Position numbers and translations under genes: made by a program. The notes beneath the pieces were generated by a model, which made no database searches, had not been told where the DNA came from, and was given only the letters and a program-made list of their open reading frames with translations. Source: Escherichia phage TH12. From it: a DNA stretch of 64,000 bases. The DNA is taken from sequence record MT446390.1. The stretch is one strand, 5' to 3'. Of the stretch, positions 7,790 through 61,775 are shown piece after piece (the stretch's first letter is position 1; each line of letters starts with the position of its first letter).

Positions 7790-7829
7790 TTTACATCTTG
7801 GTAGGACTATGTTATAGTAGTCCTACCAA
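7789..7829 (+). promoter_or_regulatory. T4-type early promoter with 11-bp inverted repeat flanking the -10
   Basis: gtttac 7789-7794, tatagt 7813-7818; arms ttggtaggact 7798-7808 / agtcctaccaa 7819-7829. Confidence 0.6.
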
Positions 7830-10135: not shown

Positions 10136-10153
10136 AAGGGCCTTCGGGCCCTT
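10136..10153 (+). terminator. Hairpin terminator candidate (UUCG loop)
   Basis: aagggcc-ttcg-ggccctt; weak T-tract. Confidence 0.5.
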
Positions 10154-22616: not shown

Positions 22617-22671
22617 TAGTTTATGATGGTAGGAAGATAACACTTCTTCCTACCAATTTGAGGAGAATATC

Positions 22672-28784: not shown

Positions 28785-28838
28785 ACGCTTTAACACGATG
28801 TGGTTATAATGACCACATCAAATTAAATGGAGAACAAC

Positions 28839-29039: not shown

Positions 29040-29456
29040 ATGTTTACTACTGCTAAAGGTTTCACTGCTGCTGATCTGAAAGTTACTTCTATCCGTACTG
29101 ACGCTAACCCGCATAACCATAATCGTGTTCGTAAAGCATGGGTCCTGCATTGTGATGACGCAAGTGCTAAAAAGCTTCAATCTTTGCCACAAGAAACTCG
29201 TTTTATGATTTATGGTTTTATTGATAACGATGTATCTGATATGTGGATTCATCTGATGCGTAAGCACTATAAAGATTCTATTGAAGCTGGTGGAAAAATC
29301 GTTCTTGATAAAGATGGTTCTGAGCGTCTGGAAGATTTCTACTGTGTTGATGCCGACGAACAATTAATTGCAGCTGGCGAAATTGTTGCTTCTAAAATTC
29401 CAGAATATATTGAATCACTACCTGAAGCTATTAAAAAGCAGATGGTCGCTGCATAA
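29040..29456 (+). CDS. Hypothetical protein, RpbA-like by synteny (138 aa)
   Basis: Located between 46 and 45 where T4 carries rpbA; no motif verified. Confidence 0.5.
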   Translation: MFTTAKGFTAADLKVTSIRTDANPHNHNRVRKAWVLHCDDASAKKLQSLPQETRFMIYGFIDNDVSDMWIHLMRKHYKDSIEAGGKIVLDKDGSERLEDFYCVDADEQLIAAGEIVASKIPEYIESLPEAIKKQMVAA

Positions 29457-29498
29457 TAAATTTGTTATAAACTTTGAATTGTCTTGAAAGGAAATAAA

Positions 29499-30185
29499 AT
29501 GAAACTGTCTAAAGATACTATCGCTATTCTGAAAAACTTTGCCTCTATTAACTCCGGTATTCTGCTGAGTCAAGGTAAATTTATTATGACGCGTGCAGTT
29601 AATGGCACTACTTATGCGGAAGCAAATATCTCTGATGAAATTGATTTTGACGTAGCACTTTATGATTTGAATAGCTTCTTAAGCATTTTGAGTCTAGTGT
29701 CTGACGATGCTGAAATTTCAATGCACACTGACGGCAATATTAAAATTGCCGATACGCGTTCCACAGTTTATTGGCCTGCTGCCGACAAGAGCACCATTGT
29801 TTTTCCTAATAAGCCAATTCAATTCCCAGTGGCTTCTGTGATTACTGAAATTAAAGCTGAAGACCTTCAACAATTGCTTCGAGTTTCACGTGGTCTTCAG
29901 ATTGATACAATTGCTATTACAAATAAAGATGGTAAAATTGTTATCAATGGTTACAATAAAGTTGAAGATTCTGGCTTGACTCGTCCTAAGTATTCTTTGA
30001 CTCTTACCGATTATGATGGTTCTAACAACTTTAACTTCGTAATCAACATGGCTAATATGAAAATCCAGCCAGGTAACTATAAAGTAATGTTGTGGGGAGC
30101 TGGTGATAAAGTTGCAGCCAAGTTTGAAAGCTCTCAAGTAAGTTATGTTATTGCAATGGAAGCCGATTCTACTCACGACTTCTAA
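29499..30185 (+). CDS. 45: Sliding clamp gp45
   Basis: MKLSKDTIAILKNFASINSGILL...EADSTHDF matches T4 gp45; 228 aa; track start 29484 is TTG. Confidence 0.95.
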   Translation: MKLSKDTIAILKNFASINSGILLSQGKFIMTRAVNGTTYAEANISDEIDFDVALYDLNSFLSILSLVSDDAEISMHTDGNIKIADTRSTVYWPAADKSTIVFPNKPIQFPVASVITEIKAEDLQQLLRVSRGLQIDTIAITNKDGKIVINGYNKVEDSGLTRPKYSLTLTDYDGSNNFNFVINMANMKIQPGNYKVMLWGAGDKVAAKFESSQVSYVIAMEADSTHDF

Positions 30186-30217
30186 GTCAAAGCTTTACGT
30201 TTAATGTAGTACGATTA

Positions 30218-30235
30218 TGGAGGAGAAATCCTCCA
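30218..30235 (+). promoter_or_regulatory. Stable hairpin in gene 44 leader (possible translational operator)
   Basis: tggagga-gaaa-tcctcca, 7-bp stem with GAAA loop, 25 nt upstream of ATG 30261. Confidence 0.45.
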
Positions 30236-30260
30236 GATTAATGATAATGAGGAAAATTAC

Positions 30261-31223
30261 ATGATTACTATCAATTCCAAAGAACACATTCTAGAACAGA
30301 AATATCGTCCTTCTTCCATTGACGAATGTATTCTGCCTGCGTATGACCATGAAATATTCAAGTCTTTAGTATCTAAAGGAAAACTTCCTCATATTATTTT
30401 GCACTCTCCTTCTCCTGGTACAGGTAAAACAACCGTAGCAAAAGCATTATGTAATGATATCAATGCCGAAATGATGTTCGTCAACGGTTCTGATTGTAAG
30501 ATTGATTTTGTGCGTGGTCCGTTAACTGCATTCGCTCGTTCAGTCTCAATGGAAGGCAAGCCTAAAGTTATTGTTATTGACGAATTTGACCGTAGTGGCC
30601 TTGCCGAATCACAACGTCACCTTCGTACGTTTATGGAAGAATTCTCTAGTAACTGCTCTATTATTATCACTGCTAACAATATTGATGGAATTATTGAACC
30701 ATTACGTAGTCGTTGTCGAGTTATCGAATTCGGTCGTCCGACTGAAGAAGATAAAATCTCGATGATGAAGAAAATGATTCATCGTATGGTTGAAATCTGT
30801 AAGAACGAAAATATCGAAATCGCTGATATGAAAGTTGTTGCAGCTCTGGTTAAAAAGAACTTCCCAGACTTTCGTCGTACAATTGGCCAATTAGACCAGT
30901 ACTCGTCTAAAGGTGTTCTTGATGCAGGTATTCTGTCTATCGTAACTAATGACCGTGGCACAGTCTCCGATGTTATCGAAGCAATGAAGAACAAAGATAT
31001 CAAACAACTTCGTGCATTAGCTCCAAAATATGCTGCAGATTATTCATGGTTCATCGATAAATTAGTTTCAGAATGTTATGATCAAGTTGCACCTGGTAAA
31101 AGTATTATTTCGCTTTACGAAATTGCAGGCGAAAATAATAAGTTTCATGGACTAGCAAGTAATATTGAATTACATGTTATGTATATGCTTCTTCAACTGA
31201 CCTGCGAACTGACTTGGAAATAA
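30261..31223 (+). CDS. 44: Clamp-loader large subunit gp44 (AAA+)
   Basis: Walker [12 protein letters not shown], Walker B VIVIDEFD; 320 aa. Confidence 0.95.
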
Positions 31224-31224
31224 T

Positions 31225-31788
31225 ATGAACTTATTCGATGATGACGTCCAGCTTAACGAGCACCAAATTGCATGGAAGTCTAATGACGCTGATGCGATTC
31301 AAAAATGTGCTGATATGTTTAAAGAAAAACCTGAGAATGAATTCTTTAAAATCATTAATGCTATTAATGAAAAGAAATCTATGTCAATTGCTCAGGTCGA
31401 CTACTCAAAATTTATGGTTGAGAACTCATTATCACAGTTTCCAGAATGTATGCCAGCCGTTTACATGATGAACTTAGTCGGTTCTGAATTAAGTGATGAA
31501 GCGCACTTCAACTATATGATGGCGGCAATTCCACGTGGTCGTCGATTCTCTAAATGGGCTAAACTAGTCGAAGACACTTCAGAGTTACTAGTTATCAAAC
31601 TGTTGATGAAACATTACACAATCAACATGAATGATGCTACCGAGTATAAGCGGCTCCTTGAAAAAAATAACAAGTTGCCAATAGTCCTTAAAGAACTGAA
31701 GGCCATGGTCACTGATGAATTTCTCAAAGAAGTTACTAAAAACGTAAAAGAACAAAAACAATTTAAAAAATTAGCATTGGAATGGTAA
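31225..31788 (+). CDS. 62: Clamp-loader small subunit gp62
   Basis: Directly downstream of 44, upstream of regA as in T4; 187 aa. Confidence 0.85.
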
Positions 31789-31790
31789 AA

Positions 31791-32159
31791 ATGATTGAAA
31801 TTAAATTGAAGAACCCTGAAGATTTTCTGAAAGTCAAAGAGACTCTAACCCGTATGGGCATCGCTAATAACAAAGATAAAGTCCTTTATCAGTCCTGTCA
31901 TATCCTCCAAAAGCAAGGTAAATATTACATCGTCCACTTTAAAGAAATGCTGCGTATGGACGGACGTCAGGTTGATATTGATGGTGAAGACTATCAGCGA
32001 CGTGATTCGATTGCTCAGCTGCTTGAAGACTGGGGATTGATTGTTATTGAAGACTCTGCTCGTGAAGATCTGTTTGGCCTGACTAATAACTTCCGTGTTA
32101 TCTCTTTTAAACAGAAAGATGACTGGACTTTGAAAGCAAAATACACAATTGGTAATTAA
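31791..32159 (+). CDS. regA: Translational repressor RegA
   Basis: MIEIKLKNPEDFLKVKETLTRMGIANNKDKVLYQSCHILQK...NNFRVISFKQK matches T4 RegA; 122 aa. Confidence 0.9.
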   Translation: MIEIKLKNPEDFLKVKETLTRMGIANNKDKVLYQSCHILQKQGKYYIVHFKEMLRMDGRQVDIDGEDYQRRDSIAQLLEDWGLIVIEDSAREDLFGLTNNFRVISFKQKDDWTLKAKYTIGN

Positions 32160-32162
32160 AGC

Positions 32163-32193
32163 AATGGGACTTCGGTCCCATTTGGAGTATAAT
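32163..32193 (+). promoter_or_regulatory. UUCG hairpin followed by GGAG-TATAAT (-10-like) upstream of gene 43
   Basis: aatgggac-ttcg-gtcccatt 32163-32182; tataat 32188-32193. Confidence 0.45.
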
Positions 32194-32240
32194 AAGTTCA
32201 TCAACAAACAAAAGACAATAACTCGTCTAAAGGAAATTAA

Positions 32241-34952
32241 ATGAAAGAATTTTACTTAACGGTTGAACAGATTGGTGATTCAATTTTTGAACGTTACATC
32301 GATTCTAATGGCCGTGAACGTACTCGTGAAGTAGAATATAAACCATCGTTGTTTGCACATTGTCCAGAAAGTCAGGCTACTAAATATTTCGATATCTACG
32401 GTAAACCTTGTACTCGTAAGTTGTTCGCTAATATGCGTGATGCCTCCCAATGGATTAAACGCATGGAAGATATCGGACTTGAAGCACTTGGCATGGACGA
32501 TTTCAAATTGGCGTATTTGTCTGACACTTATAACTATGAAATCAAATACGACCATACAAAAATTCGTGTGGCTAACTTCGACATCGAAGTAACATCTCCG
32601 GATGGGTTCCCTGAGCCGTCACAAGCAAAACATCCGATTGATGCTATCACCCATTATGACTCAATTGACGACAGGTTCTACGTATTTGATCTATTGAATT
32701 CTCCGTATGGTAATGTAGAAGAATGGTCTATCGAAATTGCGGCTAAGCTTCAAGAACAAGGCGGTGATGAAGTTCCATCTGAAATTATCGATAAAATCAT
32801 TTATATGCCATTCGATAACGAAAAAGAATTGTTGATGGAATATCTCAACTTCTGGCAACAGAAAACTCCTGTCATTTTGACTGGATGGAACGTTGAGTCA
32901 TTTGATATTCCATATGTGTATAACCGAATCAAGAATATTTTTGGCGAATCTACTGCGAAACGTTTATCACCACATCGTAAAACTCGTGTTAAAGTTATCG
33001 AAAACATGTATGGTTCTCGTGAAATCATTACATTGTTCGGTATCTCTGTTCTTGATTACATTGACCTTTACAAAAAATTCTCTTTTACCAATCAACCGTC
33101 GTATTCTCTGGATTACATTTCAGAATTTGAATTGAACGTTGGTAAACTGAAATATGACGGCCCTATTTCTAAGCTTCGTGAAAGCAATCACCAACGATAT
33201 ATAAGCTATAACATCATCGACGTGTATCGTGTATTGCAAATTGATGCTAAGCGCCAGTTCATCAACTTGAGTTTGGACATGGGTTATTATGCTAAGATAC
33301 AGATTCAATCTGTGTTTAGCCCAATTAAAACATGGGATGCTATTATTTTTAATAGCCTTAAAGAGCAGAACAAGGTGATTCCACAAGGTCGTTCTCACCC
33401 GGTTCAACCTTATCCTGGCGCTTTTGTTAAGGAACCTATTCCAAATCGATACAAATATGTAATGAGTTTCGACCTTACATCTCTGTATCCAAGTATTATT
33501 CGCCAAGTGAATATTAGCCCAGAAACAATAGCAGGAACGTTTAAAGTAGCTCCATTGCATGATTATATTAACGCAATCGCTGAACGTCCTTCAGATGTGT
33601 ACAGTTGCTCCCCTAACGGCATGATGTATTATAAAGACCGTGATGGTGTAGTTCCAACTGAAATCACTAAGGTCTTTAATCAACGTAAAGAACATAAAGG
33701 TTACATGCTTGCAGCTCAACGTAATGGTGAAATAATTAAAGAGGCATTGCATAATCCTAATCTTTCTGTTGACGAACCATTAGATGTTGATTATCGTTTC
33801 GACTTCACTGATGAGATTAAAGAAAAGATTAAAAAGTTGTCTGCTAAATCTCTTAATGAAATGTTGTTTAGAGCTCAACGTACTGAAGTTGCAGGTATGA
33901 CTGCACAGATTAACCGTAAATTGCTCATCAACTCACTTTATGGTGCACTTGGCAACGTTTGGTTCCGTTATTATGATTTGCGTAATGCTACTGCAATCAC
34001 AACATTTGGTCAAATGGCTTTACAATGGATTGAACGTAAAGTTAATGAATATCTGAACGAAGTTTGTGGTACAGAAGGTGAAGCTTTCGTTCTTTATGGT
34101 GATACAGACTCTATTTACGTATCTGCAGATAAAATTATTGATAAGGTTGGTGAATCTAAATTCCGTGATACCAACCATTGGGTAGACTTCTTAGATAAGT
34201 TCGCACGTGAACGTATGGAACCAGCTATTGATAAAGGTTTCCGTGAAATGTGTGAATACATGAACAATAAACAACACTTAATGTTCATGGACCGAGAAGC
34301 TATCGCTGGTCCTCCGCTTGGTTCTAAAGGTATTGGCGGATTCTGGACTGGTAAGAAACGTTATGCATTAAACGTGTGGGATATGGAAGGAACCAGATAC
34401 GCTGAGCCTAAACTCAAAATCATGGGTCTCGAAACACAGAAATCTTCGACCCCTAAAGCAGTACAGAAAGCTCTTAAAGAATGTATTCGCCGTATGCTTC
34501 AAGAAGGTGAAGAATCATTACAAGAATATTTTAAAGAGTTTGAAAAAGAATTCCGTCAATTGAATTATATTAGCATCGCGTCGGTATCTTCTGCGAATAA
34601 CATTGCTAAATATGACGTTGGTGGATTCCCTGGTCCTAAATGTCCGTTCCATATTCGTGGAATTCTGACATATAACCGAGCTATCAAAGGTAATATTGAT
34701 GCTCCACAAGTTGTAGAAGGCGAAAAGGTATACGTTCTGCCTTTACGTGATGGAAACCCGTTCGGTGATAAATGTATCGCATGGCCTTCTGGTACTGAAA
34801 TCACAGATTTAATTAAAGACGACGTACTTCATTGGATGGACTACACTGTTCTCCTTGAGAAGACATTTATTAAACCACTTGAAGGATTCACATCAGCAGC
34901 GAAACTCGATTACGAGAAGAAAGCATCTCTGTTCGATATGTTCGATTTTTGA
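32241..34952 (+). CDS. 43: DNA polymerase (family B) gp43
   Basis: 903 aa; N-terminus MKEFYLTVEQIGDSIFERYIDSNGRERTREVEYKPSLF matches recalled RB69 gp43; exo FDIEV, pol motifs DxxSLYPS and YGDTDS. Confidence 0.98.
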   Translation: MKEFYLTVEQIGDSIFERYIDSNGRERTREVEYKPSLFAHCPESQATKYFDIYGKPCTRKLFANMRDASQWIKRMEDIGLEALGMDDFKLAYLSDTYNYEIKYDHTKIRVANFDIEVTSPDGFPEPSQAKHPIDAITHYDSIDDRFYVFDLLNSPYGNVEEWSIEIAAKLQEQGGDEVPSEIIDKIIYMPFDNEKELLMEYLNFWQQKTPVILTGWNVESFDIPYVYNRIKNIFGESTAKRLSPHRKTRVKVIENMYGSREIITLFGISVLDYIDLYKKFSFTNQPSYSLDYISEFELNVGKLKYDGPISKLRESNHQRYISYNIIDVYRVLQIDAKRQFINLSLDMGYYAKIQIQSVFSPIKTWDAIIFNSLKEQNKVIPQGRSHPVQPYPGAFVKEPIPNRYKYVMSFDLTSLYPSIIRQVNISPETIAGTFKVAPLHDYINAIAERPSDVYSCSPNGMMYYKDRDGVVPTEITKVFNQRKEHKGYMLAAQRNGEIIKEALHNPNLSVDEPLDVDYRFDFTDEIKEKIKKLSAKSLNEMLFRAQRTEVAGMTAQINRKLLINSLYGALGNVWFRYYDLRNATAITTFGQMALQWIERKVNEYLNEVCGTEGEAFVLYGDTDSIYVSADKIIDKVGESKFRDTNHWVDFLDKFARERMEPAIDKGFREMCEYMNNKQHLMFMDREAIAGPPLGSKGIGGFWTGKKRYALNVWDMEGTRYAEPKLKIMGLETQKSSTPKAVQKALKECIRRMLQEGEESLQEYFKEFEKEFRQLNYISIASVSSANNIAKYDVGGFPGPKCPFHIRGILTYNRAIKGNIDAPQVVEGEKVYVLPLRDGNPFGDKCIAWPSGTEITDLIKDDVLHWMDYTVLLEKTFIKPLEGFTSAAKLDYEKKASLFDMFDF

Positions 34953-34992: not shown

Positions 34993-35628
34993 ATGAAAAC
35001 TACACCAATCACTATCGCTATTGACGCAATCGTAAAACAAGCTTCATCTCTTGCCACTATGGCTAAAGTAATTAGTCAAAACTCTGCCCGATATAATGCT
35101 ATTCTTGAAACTCTTCGTCGCCCTGGACTGAGTAATTATGAAAGCCGAGTAATTATTACAGGTGTTGGTAAGAACGCTAATATCGCAACTAAAGCTTCCG
35201 AGACTTTTGCTTCACTAGGTATTCCTAGCATGTATTTGAACACCGGGCATTATTCTCATGGCGACGCAGGGTTTATTGCACCTAATGATGTATTAGTTCA
35301 CATCAGTCGTTCTGGTAAGACTGAAGAAATGATAGGTGTTGCTAAACATCTTCGTATGATTCGTCCTCAGGTTAAACAGATTCTGTTACATTGTAACCCT
35401 GACATTCCGCAAGAATACGAAGCTCTTTTTGATTATACGTTCTGTACAGGCATCGCGGTAGAGGTTGATGAGAATTCTCTGGCTCCGACCATGTCCACTA
35501 CATTGTTGTTAGCGCTTATCGATACGTTTGCTATCAACCTTTCGTCTGAACGTGGATTTACCTCTAATGACTTCCTTAAGTTCCACCCTGGTGGTGCACT
35601 AGGTGCCATGTTACGAGGCGAACAATGA
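34993..35628 (+). CDS. SIS-domain sugar-phosphate isomerase (arabinose-5-phosphate isomerase-like)
   Basis: SIS motifs ITGVGKNANIATK, SRSGKTEE, HPGGALG; 211 aa. Confidence 0.8.
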   Translation: MKTTPITIAIDAIVKQASSLATMAKVISQNSARYNAILETLRRPGLSNYESRVIITGVGKNANIATKASETFASLGIPSMYLNTGHYSHGDAGFIAPNDVLVHISRSGKTEEMIGVAKHLRMIRPQVKQILLHCNPDIPQEYEALFDYTFCTGIAVEVDENSLAPTMSTTLLLALIDTFAINLSSERGFTSNDFLKFHPGGALGAMLRGEQ

Positions 35629-35768
35629 AAGCAATAACAATAGGACTTTTACTATTGATGCTTGTCATGACTATCTACTGGAGCTTAACGGCTCCAGTAA
35701 TGATTCCGACTCTTATAATCGGATGGATTATGATTGGACTACAAACAAAGTATGAATGCTTTAACTAG
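35625..35768 (+). CDS. Small membrane peptide (47 aa), uncertain
   Basis: ATGA overlap with SIS gene stop; hydrophobic; below track cutoff. Confidence 0.4.
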   Translation: MKAITIGLLLLMLVMTIYWSLTAPVMIPTLIIGWIMIGLQTKYECFN

Positions 35769-41642: not shown

Positions 41643-42815
41643 ATGTCTGATTTAAAATCTCGTCTGATTAAAGCTTCTACTTCTAAAATGACTGCGGACT
41701 TGACTAAGTCTAAGCTGTTTAATAATCGTGATGAAGTCCCTACTCGTATTCCGATGTTGAATATCGCACTAGGTGGTGCTCTGAATGCAGGATTGCAATC
41801 AGGCTTGACTATTTTTGCTGCACCTTCTAAACACTTTAAAACGCTGTTTGGACTAACTATGGTTGCAGCGTATATGAAGAAATATAAAGATGCAATCTGT
41901 TTGTTTTATGACTCAGAATTTGGTGCTTCAGAATCTTATTTTCGTTCAATGGGTGTTGATTTAGACCGTGTAGTTCATACTCCGATTCAATCTGTCGAAC
42001 AACTTAAAGTTGATATGACTAATCAGCTTGACGCGATTGAACGCGGTGATAAAGTTATTATCTTTATCGATTCAATCGGTAATACTGCATCTAAGAAAGA
42101 AACCGAAGATGCATTGAATGAGAAAGTCGTAGGTGATATGTCTCGTGCTAAGGCACTTAAATCTCTGTTCCGTATTGTGACTCCTTATCTGACTATTAAA
42201 GATATTCCATGTGTTGCAATCAACCATACAGCAATGGAAATCGGCGGATTGTATCCTAAAGAGATTATGGGCGGTGGTACAGGTATTCTTTATTCTGCCA
42301 ACACGGTATTTTTTATCTCTAAACGTCAGGTTAAAGAAGGTACAGAATTGACCGGTTATGACTTCACGTTGAAAGCGGAAAAATCTCGTACAGTTAAAGA
42401 GAAATCTACTTTCCCGATCACGGTTAATTTTGATGGCGGTATTGACCCATTCAGTGGCTTGTTAGAAATGGCAACTGAAATTGGTTTTGTAGTTAAGCCT
42501 AAAGCCGGGTGGTATGCTCGTGAATTCCTTGACGAAGAAACAGGCGAAATGATTCGTGAAGAGAAATCATGGCGTGCTAAAGCTACTGATTGTGTAGAAT
42601 TCTGGGGACCTTTGTTTAAACATAAGCCTTTCCGAGATGCAATTGAAACTAAATATAAACTAGGTGCTATCTCTTCTATTAAAGAAGTTGATGACGCTGT
42701 TAACGACCTTATTAATTGCAAAGCAACAACTAAAGTTCCGGTTAAAGCTTCTGATGCTCCGTCTGCAGCAGATATAGAAAACGACCTTGACGAAATGGAA
42801 GATTTCGATGAATAA
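41643..42815 (+). CDS. uvsX: RecA-like recombinase UvsX
   Basis: MSDLKSRLIKASTSKMTADLT...matches T4 UvsX N-terminus; C-terminal acidic tail; 390 aa. Confidence 0.95.
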   Translation: MSDLKSRLIKASTSKMTADLTKSKLFNNRDEVPTRIPMLNIALGGALNAGLQSGLTIFAAPSKHFKTLFGLTMVAAYMKKYKDAICLFYDSEFGASESYFRSMGVDLDRVVHTPIQSVEQLKVDMTNQLDAIERGDKVIIFIDSIGNTASKKETEDALNEKVVGDMSRAKALKSLFRIVTPYLTIKDIPCVAINHTAMEIGGLYPKEIMGGGTGILYSANTVFFISKRQVKEGTELTGYDFTLKAEKSRTVKEKSTFPITVNFDGGIDPFSGLLEMATEIGFVVKPKAGWYAREFLDEETGEMIREEKSWRAKATDCVEFWGPLFKHKPFRDAIETKYKLGAISSIKEVDDAVNDLINCKATTKVPVKASDAPSAADIENDLDEMEDFDE

Positions 42816-43149
42816 TCTCGATGATTTAAATCTAGAAATCGTTGATGAATCCCCTTCTTCGGAAGGGGAAGACATTCGCAAAGAACGAGTGTTTAATGAA
42901 TCTCTTAAAATTATCCGTTCAGCAATGGAAAATGTCATTCAAGAGATTCTGATTACACTTGAAGACGGTTCTCATCATATAGTCTATATTACAAAACTAG
43001 ACTGGGTTGATGGTAAAATCGTAATGGACTTTGCAGTTCTTGACCAGGACAGAAAAGCAGAACTTGCACCACATGTTGAAAAATGTGTTACAATGCAGGT
43101 ACAACAAGCTTTTAATGAACGAACCAAGAAAAAATTTAAATTCTTTTAA
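42808..43149 (+). CDS. Hypothetical protein, gp40-like by synteny (113 aa)
   Basis: Internal ATG overlapping uvsX stop; sits between uvsX and 41 as T4 gene 40. Confidence 0.5.
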   Translation: MNNLDDLNLEIVDESPSSEGEDIRKERVFNESLKIIRSAMENVIQEILITLEDGSHHIVYITKLDWVDGKIVMDFAVLDQDRKAELAPHVEKCVTMQVQQAFNERTKKKFKFF

Positions 43150-44601: not shown

Positions 44602-44605
44602 TAAA

Positions 44606-44625
44606 AAGGAGACTTCGGTCTCCTT
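44606..44625 (+). terminator. UUCG hairpin (terminator/processing candidate)
   Basis: aaggagac-ttcg-gtctcctt; short T-tract. Confidence 0.5.
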
Positions 44626-44689
44626 TCGGGGTTTACATCTTCCTCTAGGCATGATATGATGAACTTACACCAACCAAGAGGAAAACATT

Positions 44690-50422: not shown

Positions 50423-50430
50423 ATAATTTA

Positions 50431-50456
50431 AGGAATCCTTCGGGATTCCTTTTTTC
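50431..50456 (+). terminator. Intrinsic terminator
   Basis: aggaatcc-ttcg-ggattcct followed by ttttt. Confidence 0.7.
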
Positions 50457-61747: not shown

Positions 61748-61775
61748 AAGCTCCTTCGGGAGCTTCATTTTAATT
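61748..61775 (+). terminator. Hairpin terminator candidate
   Basis: aagctcc-ttcg-ggagctt then cattttaatttt. Confidence 0.55.

Follow-up and report, generated by a model that had tools for sequence, protein, structure and literature searches.

The spacer between genes 45 and 44 of phage T4 holds a small hairpin, GGGC-UUCG-GCCU, which lies 2-4 nt past the gene 45 stop codon and is followed by UUUAUAAUUU. This particular spacer was reportedly treated by Tuerk and colleagues in 1988, and the transcript map of the T4 cluster by Hsu and Karam (1990) reportedly shows a partial stop between 45 and 44. Canonical intrinsic terminators follow closely on a gene, on the transcribed strand, and join a G+C-rich stem (about 5-14 bp) and its short loop to a defining U-rich tract directly 3' of the stem. 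Intercistronic mRNA-stabilising hairpins, such as the REP elements of malE-malF and the hairpins of the puf operon, set the differential expression of the cistrons of an operon. Among T4-like phages, the 'CUUCGG hairpin' class of Tuerk et al. 1988 (as cited in PMC3972237) takes C(UUCG)G as its prototype, and both UUCG and GAAA tetraloops nucleate unusually stable hairpins that have been associated with T4 mRNA and with rho-independent termination (PMC3972237). In RB69, a member of the genus Mosigvirus, a TransTerm terminator designated '44<--45' was assigned to positions 35357-35372 with a score of 100 and a stem of 6 bp, and RB43 and Aeh1 have '44<--45' terminator entries too (Nolan et al. 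2006; PMC1524935, Additional file 6). The same spacer also houses a translational control element. The sites of the repressor RegA are A+U-rich and without apparent secondary structure: the T4 gene 44 operator is AAAUUAUGAUU, RB69 RegA protects the Shine-Dalgarno-to-AUG region of genes 44 and 45, the AUG itself excluded, and selection with RB69 RegA (SELEX) yielded AAUAAUAAUAAnA (PMC3014915, Uzan and Miller review). A second operator of this gene cluster, that of gp43, is itself a hairpin in the intercistronic regA-43 spacer, with a specific UAAC-containing loop that adjoins the gene 43 ribosome-binding site.

The window analysed here, a stretch of 64,000 nt from Escherichia phage TH12 (MT446390.1), belongs to an RB69-like Mosigvirus. 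Around its 45-44 hairpin, the sequence matches that of Escherichia phage OLB35 at 100% identity and those of about 150 further Mosigvirus genomes at 96-99%, and the order of genes on the + strand, 46, 45.2, rpbA, 45, 44, 62, regA, 43, matches that of RB69 and T4. The records of relatives annotate gene 45 as sliding clamp or processivity factor, and the tblastn matches of gene 44 carry a clamp loader annotation. The layout of the locus is given in Table 1.

Table 1. Features in and around the 45-44 spacer of the window, with the basis of each assignment
Feature	Position	Strand	Basis
Gene 45, sliding clamp, 228 codons	29499..30185	+	ORF list, start read as ATG 29499
Gene 45 stop TAA	30183-30185	+	
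5' part of 45-44 spacer, variable in Mosigvirus	30186..30217	+	alignment
Hairpin 5' arm UGGAGGA, Shine-Dalgarno-like, with two overlapping GGAG	30218..30224	+	sequence, folding
GAAA (GNRA) tetraloop	30225..30228	+	sequence, folding
Hairpin 3' arm UCCUCCA, anti-Shine-Dalgarno-like	30229..30235	+	sequence, folding
A/U-rich single-stranded spacer GAUUAAUGAUAAU, at the U-tract position but without U-richness	30236..30248	+	tail score
Gene 44 Shine-Dalgarno GAGGA, invariant in 8 Mosigviruses	30249..30253	+	sequence, alignment
AAAUUAC, Shine-Dalgarno-to-AUG stretch of gene 44	30254..30260	+	identical to RB69
Gene 44, clamp-loader large subunit, 320 codons	30261..31223	+	ORF list
regA	31782-32159	+	
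Gene 43	32241-34952	+	

The hairpin, TGGAGGA GAAA TCCTCCA at 30218-30235, is a perfect 7-bp stem of four G-C and three A-U pairs, just as an earlier note on this DNA had described it, a tggagga/tcctcca stem closed by GAAA. It begins 32 nt past the gene 45 stop. Downstream of it, the gene 44 Shine-Dalgarno sequence, to whose GAGGA its 3' arm UCCUCCA is complementary, follows after 13 nt and the AUG after 25 nt; this last spacing had also been given in the earlier note and is correct, since the hairpin ends at 30235 and the gene 44 ATG starts at 30261. Two of its descriptive terms need trimming. The stem is 'G/C-rich' relative to a genome of 37% G+C, but not beyond that comparison, and 'gene 44 leader', while right in placing the element before 44, is better replaced by '45-44 intercistronic spacer', because in most relatives the hairpin begins 0-15 nt past the 45 stop, so that it is attached no less to the 3' end of gene 45 than to the gene 44 leader. 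In the spacer comparison, the segment 30186..30217 is without counterpart in most other genera.

By folding, the element is a very stable hairpin. Alone, it reaches -10.7 kcal/mol (z = -2.9 against shuffles), and when it is folded within segments of 83-151 nt the pairing probabilities are 0.95-1.0 for the six inner pairs and 0.8-0.9 for the outermost U-A pair, the gene 44 Shine-Dalgarno sequence being about 0.7 unpaired while the hairpin is intact. The whole 105-nt spacer is not unusually structured (z = -0.56); the signal is this single hairpin. It is real and stands above chance expectation. When the + strand of the window was compared with 40 dinucleotide-preserving shuffles, perfect-stem tetraloop hairpins at or below -10 kcal/mol numbered 8 against 0.23 +/- 0.47 in the shuffled sequences, and perfect-stem hairpins of all loop sizes at the same threshold 19 against 1.5 +/- 1.4. 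C(UUCG)G accounts for six of the eight tetraloops; of the other two, one is UUAU and the other is the GAAA at 30218-30235. About 110 of the 115 called genes lie on the + strand, which carries six UUCG and zero CGAA tetraloops, the strand bias expected of RNA-level elements. Twelve of the 19 hairpins are wholly intergenic, and a thirteenth overlaps a stop codon (by a greedy ORF call). Most of the other intergenic hairpins begin 1-14 nt past an upstream stop, and U-rich tails follow 8 of the 12, so that hairpins tied to gene 3' ends form a class in this window. The 45-44 hairpin, at its 32 nt, is the farthest from its stop of any intergenic hairpin in the window. An Rfam scan of 29400-32400, with E-values up to 10, returned no match overlapping 30186-30260.

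Within Mosigvirus the hairpin is invariant while its surroundings drift. In eight genomes of the genus, none of the 18 hairpin columns varies, versus 18 of the 57 columns in the rest of the spacer (Fisher p = 0.004), and the identical hairpin recurs in three metagenome contigs; the very completeness of this invariance leaves nothing on which covariation could be tested inside the genus. The IMG/VR relatives of gp44 are mostly distant (34-43% identity) and of little help for the 45-44 spacer. What does change is the tail behind the stem. The window carries A at 30237, a minority allele where U is found in 10 of the 11 relatives read, and its post-stem tail is GAUUAAU, compared with GUUUAAU in those 10; GUUUAAU is the tail of RB69 and of the Mosigvirus SA35RD. 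The A30237 allele adds four weak pairs to the helix (-12.0 kcal/mol). In the Mosigvirus ESCO47 the same hairpin is followed by CUUUUUGAUAAU.

Between genera it is the structure that persists. The 45-44 spacers of representatives from 16 genera or lineages of T4-like phages were compared and each was folded, and a G+C-rich hairpin is present in all 16. Fifteen of these hairpins rank in the top 6% of same-length control windows, and eight exceed all controls, the controls being taken from the largely coding sequence that flanks each spacer. Such controls were used in place of a cross-genus count of conserved pairs because the spacers can be aligned only via the hairpin, so that the count would be circular. 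The stem sequences differ among genera, and the loops are mostly UUCG, UACG or GAAA. Next to the GGGC/GCCU of T4 there is GGGAGGA/UCCUCCC in Dhakavirus, GGAUGGUC/GACCAUCC in Karamvirus and AAGGAGAC/GUCUCCUU in Kanagawavirus. Dhakavirus and the window share a GGAGGA/UCCUCC core, and the sole candidate for a compensatory change is the outer pair, U-A here versus G-C in Dhakavirus. The element at 30218-30235 is the Mosigvirus form of a stable 'punctuation' hairpin, an ordinary feature of T4-like phages in the interval from gene 45 to gene 44.

The comparison with T4 illustrates how far such versions may diverge. Both are extra-stable tetraloop hairpins that occupy, on the sense strand, the 45-44 spacer of this operon, yet they have no sequence similarity: a UUCG loop closed by C-G in T4 is replaced by GAAA closed by A-U, and a hairpin that nearly abuts the stop and runs into UUUAUAAUUU is replaced by one 32 nt away with no U tract behind it. 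With its stable-class (GNRA) tetraloop and G+C-rich stem, its intercistronic position on the sense strand and its positional counterpart in the T4 45-44 spacer, the window hairpin has the characters of the CUUCGG class in all but the loop sequence and the closing pair of the prototype. It resembles the REP and puf hairpins, too, in lying between cistrons of unequal product need, in doing without a U tract and in being followed by an A/U-rich single-stranded stretch, although these are bacterial elements unrelated to it in sequence.

How much of a terminator is it? A perfect 7-bp stem with a 4-nt loop on the transcribed strand, past the gene 45 coding region and ahead of gene 44, has the stem and the position of an intrinsic terminator, and it has been catalogued as one. 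In converted coordinates the RB69 entry covers precisely the loop of this hairpin and its six inner base pairs, and the GenBank record of SA35RD places a rho-independent terminator over the hairpin and 10 further nt. Both features have the identical 18-nt sequence in the same place, and both are software predictions, by TransTerm in RB69 and by WebGeSTer and TransTermHP in SA35RD. The record of CfP1 likewise annotates a terminator in the 45-44 spacer. The difference is in the tail, since the change from GUUUAAU to GAUUAAU drops the U-tail score to background. On a TransTermHP-style tail score, the tail of the window, GAUUAAUGAUAAUGA, reaches -2.12, at the 48th percentile of window positions; the tails of RB69 (-2.88) and of ESCO47 (CUUUUU; -3.46) are nearer the terminator type. 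Orthologous hairpins of distant T4-like genera have textbook U tracts where the window copy has none. Tulanevirus, Krischvirus, Pseudotevenvirus, Slopekvirus, Vibrio phage D486 and T4 have U-rich tails in the top 1% of positions, as has the T4-like phage SF2-1. Across the sample, a terminator-type U tract follows the hairpin in 7 of the 16 genera, and there is no clear U tract in the other 9.

Lacking a U tract (GAUUAAUGAU), the window hairpin fails the strict test for an intrinsic terminator, and the consensus terminator scan did not call the hairpin at 30218-30235. A tail score at the window median together with the missing call implies that termination, if any, should be weak. The consensus promoter scan of the spacer returned no sigma-70-type promoter. 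Several lines nonetheless favour a terminator ancestry for the 45-44 hairpin; what is conserved is the hairpin itself, not the U tract.

These observations are best accounted for if gene 45 mRNA owes its 3' ends, or their protection, to the hairpin, which thereby lowers the amount of 44-62-regA message relative to that of 45, a reading that we consider probable, if by no great measure. The hairpin would form in the sense RNA when the unit 45.2-rpbA-45-44-62-regA is transcribed, and its effect could come about by two routes. Some RNA polymerases may stop at it, as at a leaky, weakened intrinsic terminator, with leaky termination expected to be stronger in relatives that have better U tracts. 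Alternatively, the transcript may be cleaved in the A/U-rich stretch just downstream and trimmed back to the hairpin, which would then stop 3'-to-5' exonucleases. Either route would shift the 45:44 ratio in the same direction, the 45 message outnumbering or outlasting the 44-62-regA message. Gene 44 should still be made from read-through transcripts, since the hairpin stops 13 nt short of the Shine-Dalgarno sequence, which stays unpaired. RegA control of 44 would be a separate matter, exerted on the unstructured A/U-rich Shine-Dalgarno-to-AUG stretch. The lack of a clear U tract in 9 of the 16 genera favours the exonuclease-barrier half of this proposal, short of proof, and the suggestion in the earlier note that the hairpin is an mRNA stabiliser is compatible with all of the findings and becomes part of the preferred explanation. 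Genes 45, 44 and 62 of T4 fall into one temporal class, middle RNA (T4 omics supplements, PMC9697503, which give classes, not abundances), and this is consistent with read-through, that is, with a leaky rather than a complete separation of the two messages. Set against 3'-end formation or protection is the spacing in this window, where 32 nt from the 45 stop and 25 nt to the 44 AUG also fit a role for the downstream gene.

The role that had first been put forward for the hairpin, a candidate translational operator for RegA, is not supported. Its appeal is one of location: the hairpin shares its spacer with the RegA-controlled initiation region of gene 44, and the adjoining UAAUGAUAAUGA, with its UAA/UGA repeats, resembles the RB69 RegA SELEX motif AAUAAUAAUAA (PMC3014915). 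The operators of T4 and RB69 do occupy this spacer and regulate this gene, but they are unstructured, A+U-rich and situated at the Shine-Dalgarno sequence or the AUG, or between the two (PMC3014915), whereas the hairpin is fully paired, with G-C in 4 of its 7 pairs, and ends at 30235, 13 nt upstream of a Shine-Dalgarno sequence that begins only at 30249. Moreover, the T4 and RB69 hairpins differ in sequence, loop and position, although the RegA proteins of both phages repress 44, which in T4 is the classic RegA target, and the gene 45 leader, also a RegA target, has by eye no obvious comparable hairpin. That the hairpin is the RegA operator of gene 44, or part of one, is accordingly very improbable. 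The likely operator here runs from about 30240 to 30260, a stretch that is invariant and unstructured and includes the AAAUUAC at 30254-30260, since this matches the stretch protected by RB69 RegA (PMC3014915). A hairpin near a RegA-controlled start need not be an operator, and the regA-43 spacer of the same cluster makes a related point. There, an AGAC-AAUAACUC-GUCU hairpin at 32213-32228 bears the UAAC loop motif of the gp43 operator (PMC3014915), and a separate C(UUCG)G hairpin at 32163-32182 sits 3 nt past the regA stop. Operator and punctuation hairpins are thus distinct elements in this cluster, and the 45-44 hairpin, without a UAAC-containing loop and just outside the ribosome-binding region, is unlike the former.

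Other readings look to the downstream gene or to the arms of the stem. Conceivably, the hairpin could shield or insulate the 44-62-regA mRNA as a cap: after processing of the spacer, or on some transcripts, it would lie at the 5' end or close to it, slowing the entry of RNase E and keeping the 44 ribosome-binding region single-stranded. Such a role would sit well with a hairpin-AUG spacing that is fairly constant (25-34 nt in 11 of the 16 genera) and with a gene 44 Shine-Dalgarno sequence that is some 70% unpaired in the presence of the hairpin. It would sit well, too, with an identical GGAGGA-GAAA-UCCUCC that Jiaodavirus and Moonvirus carry, without a U tract, 5-9 nt upstream of the Shine-Dalgarno sequence of another gene, and with two further hairpins of the window that lack U tails and lie 13-16 nt ahead of a start codon. 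The constancy of the distance is, however, partly forced, since the 45-44 spacers are short (46-75 nt), and a hairpin that abuts the 45 stop within 0-15 nt in most genera, with a terminator-type U tract in 7 of 16, points back to the upstream gene; we regard a protective role for the downstream message as unlikely. The inverted repeat might instead act as DNA, binding a dimeric protein or extruding as a cruciform, or be a functionless relic. Its perfect 7 bp would suit a DNA-level site. Against this, loops of UUCG, UACG and GAAA are RNA-specific stable tetraloops with a strand bias, the stems change between genera while the pairing is kept, which is not what a sequence-specific DNA site would show, and a relic would hardly stay invariant in Mosigvirus while the spacer around it varies. 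Neither version is readily credible, and together they are the least probable of the readings weighed here.

The Shine-Dalgarno-like and anti-Shine-Dalgarno-like arms raise the further prospect of a lock, in which the 5' arm GGAGGA would hold the 3' arm UCCUCC, and RNAs without the 5' arm would have the 3' arm paired with the 44 Shine-Dalgarno sequence and translation silenced. Such RNAs might start at about 30222 from a MotA-box-like promoter or arise by a RegB-type cut in GGAG. T4 offers precedents for transcript-dependent sequestration of a Shine-Dalgarno sequence in genes e, soc, 49 and I-TevI (PMC3014915), and the predicted folding behaves as required, the probability that the 44 Shine-Dalgarno sequence is unpaired falling from about 0.7 to 0.44 for a 5' end at 30222 and to 0.07 for one at 30225. 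If the middle-promoter pattern is taken to be a MotA box, (a/t)(a/t)(a/t)TGCTTtA, that precedes a -10 element TAnnnT by about 12 bp, GCTTTA-N12-TACGAT at 30192-30215 fits, with a start that would fall at about 30222; the pattern is enriched in the window (35 matches versus 11 expected), and the core of the stem, GGAGGA/UCCUCC, recurs in the 45-44 hairpin of Dhakavirus. The promoter match itself, AAAGCTTTA-N12-TACGAT at 30189-30215, is weak, however: two of the 8 Mosigviruses have GATT in place of its GCTT core, its -10 element TACGAT is poor, and no middle promoter is predicted at that site in RB69. The stems of T4 and of most genera have no anti-Shine-Dalgarno character, RegB spares structured GGAG and most middle transcripts (PMC3014915), and silent short transcripts have no evident benefit. 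Very little weight can therefore be given to such a lock. A slightly broader proposal, that the conserved role of the 45-44 hairpin is purely RNA-level and not termination, as its retention without a U tract in 9 of 16 genera might suggest, with the Mosigvirus and Dhakavirus form doubling as an anti-Shine-Dalgarno lock, is only a little less improbable. If the lock were true, the clamp loader would be subject to transcript-specific silencing, RNA 5' ends inside the 5' arm hiding the gene 44 Shine-Dalgarno sequence.

Two smaller candidates in the same stretch were considered and rejected. As a RegB site the 5' arm is a poor prospect: both GGAG are paired (probability about 1.0), and their 3' context, GGAGAAAUCCU, fits GGAGRAYARAA poorly; structure protects GGAG from RegB, and most middle transcripts are resistant (PMC3014915). 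An upstream reading frame of 15 codons, from ATG 30217 to TGA 30264, ends in an ATGA overlap with the gene 44 start, but it lacks a Shine-Dalgarno sequence, and in ESCO47 the deletion of A30217 destroys the ATG.

The element as such is not new. It is already catalogued as a predicted terminator in RB69 and SA35RD, and it is the counterpart of the long-known T4 45-44 hairpin. The mildly new point is a comparative one, namely that the hairpin is kept in all sampled genera, U tract or none. Taken alone, the hairpin is of little importance, and its value is modest and comparative. The GAUU, GUUU and CUUUUU tails that Mosigviruses carry behind an identical hairpin amount to a natural allelic series, which could serve to apportion its action between termination and protection from decay. 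Its retention in every sampled genus, in turn, points to a conserved need of T4-like phages to uncouple the message amounts of gp45 and gp44/62.

The hairpin between genes 45 and 44 (30218-30235) is not confined to that spacer. The same GAAA-capped stem recurs in a Jiaodavirus and a Moonvirus at an unrelated locus, 3′ of a thioredoxin-like gene, where no U tract accompanies it and the Shine–Dalgarno sequence UGAGGAAAA of a small ORF lies 5-9 nt past each copy. An exact 16-mer of the hairpin is also present in Synechococcus, Erwinia, and Clostridium phages, with E-values at chance level. Just 3′ of the hairpin, the window carries a minority allele, A30237; RB69, six further Mosigviruses, and three metagenome contigs all have U there. 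The A costs the would-be terminator tail one U, and permits a helix longer by four weak pairs, GAUU (30213-16) with GAUU (30236-39).

Two further features converge on this spacer. A 15-codon frame spans the hairpin, and its stop codon overlaps the start codon of gene 44 (ATGA); the T4 counterpart is four codons long (AUG AGG AAA UUA UGA). An upstream-ORF reading of this frame was rejected; it is probably a chance occurrence, because no Shine–Dalgarno sequence precedes it and its ATG is missing in the Mosigvirus relative ESCO47. The other is a match to GCTTNA-N11-13-TANNNT, a MotA box plus −10, a pattern found 35 times in the window versus 11 expected. From the match within the spacer, transcription would be predicted to start inside the hairpin's 5′ arm.

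Hairpins and related features; window positions, except L102 and L103 (stretches of relatives, own numbering)
Feature	Position	Strand	Context
G-GGAGGA-GAAA-UCCUCC-C hairpin	L102 398-418		Jiaodavirus ValerieMcCarty05
G-GGAGGA-GAAA-UCCUCC-C hairpin	L103 398-418		Moonvirus Moon
ATG GAG GAG AAA TCC TCC AGA TTA ATG ATA ATG AGG AAA ATT ACA TGA	30217-30264	+	15-codon frame
GCTTTA-N12-TATAAT	28787-28810	+	directly upstream of 45.2; matches RB69 predicted promoter Pm:36813
GCTTTA-N12-TACGAT (weaker)	30192-30215	+	45-44 spacer
12-bp hairpin, -17.3 kcal/mol	7798-7829	+	intergenic
11-bp hairpin, -16.8 kcal/mol	22627-22655	+	intergenic
9-bp hairpin UACUGGAGC-UUAACG-GCUCCAGUA, -14.0 kcal/mol	35676-35699	+	downstream of gene 43
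AGAC-AAUAACUC-GUCU hairpin	32213-32228	+	regA-43 spacer; loop with UAAC motif of gp43 translational operator
C(UUCG)G hairpin AAUGGGAC-UUCG-GUCCCAUU	32163-32182	+	regA-43 spacer, 3 nt past regA stop
C(UUCG)G hairpin	10136-10153	+	
C(UUCG)G hairpin	42850-42869	+	
C(UUCG)G hairpin	44605-44626	+	
C(UUCG)G hairpin	50430-50451	+	
C(UUCG)G hairpin	61748-61765	+	

Elsewhere in the window, the two long intergenic hairpins share a stem start, TGGTAGGA...TCCTACCA, both are devoid of a U tract, and they may be copies of a single repeated hairpin family. The strong 9-bp hairpin is located within a small called ORF (35625-35768), and its loop also contains UAAC, the loop motif of the gp43 operator.

The regA-43 spacer harbors two separate elements, the AGAC/GUCU hairpin and, 5′ of it, a C(UUCG)G hairpin. 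The tail of the latter, UGGAGUAUAAUA, is near-identical to those that follow the 45-44 hairpins of Dhakavirus IME08 (UUGGAGUAUAAUG) and Kanagawavirus CIP9 (UUGGAGUAUUAAG). C(UUCG)G hairpins number six on the plus strand, five of them situated 1-14 nt past a stop codon and one within a called ORF (42808-43149). CGAA loops are absent from that strand, which identifies all six as sense-RNA elements.
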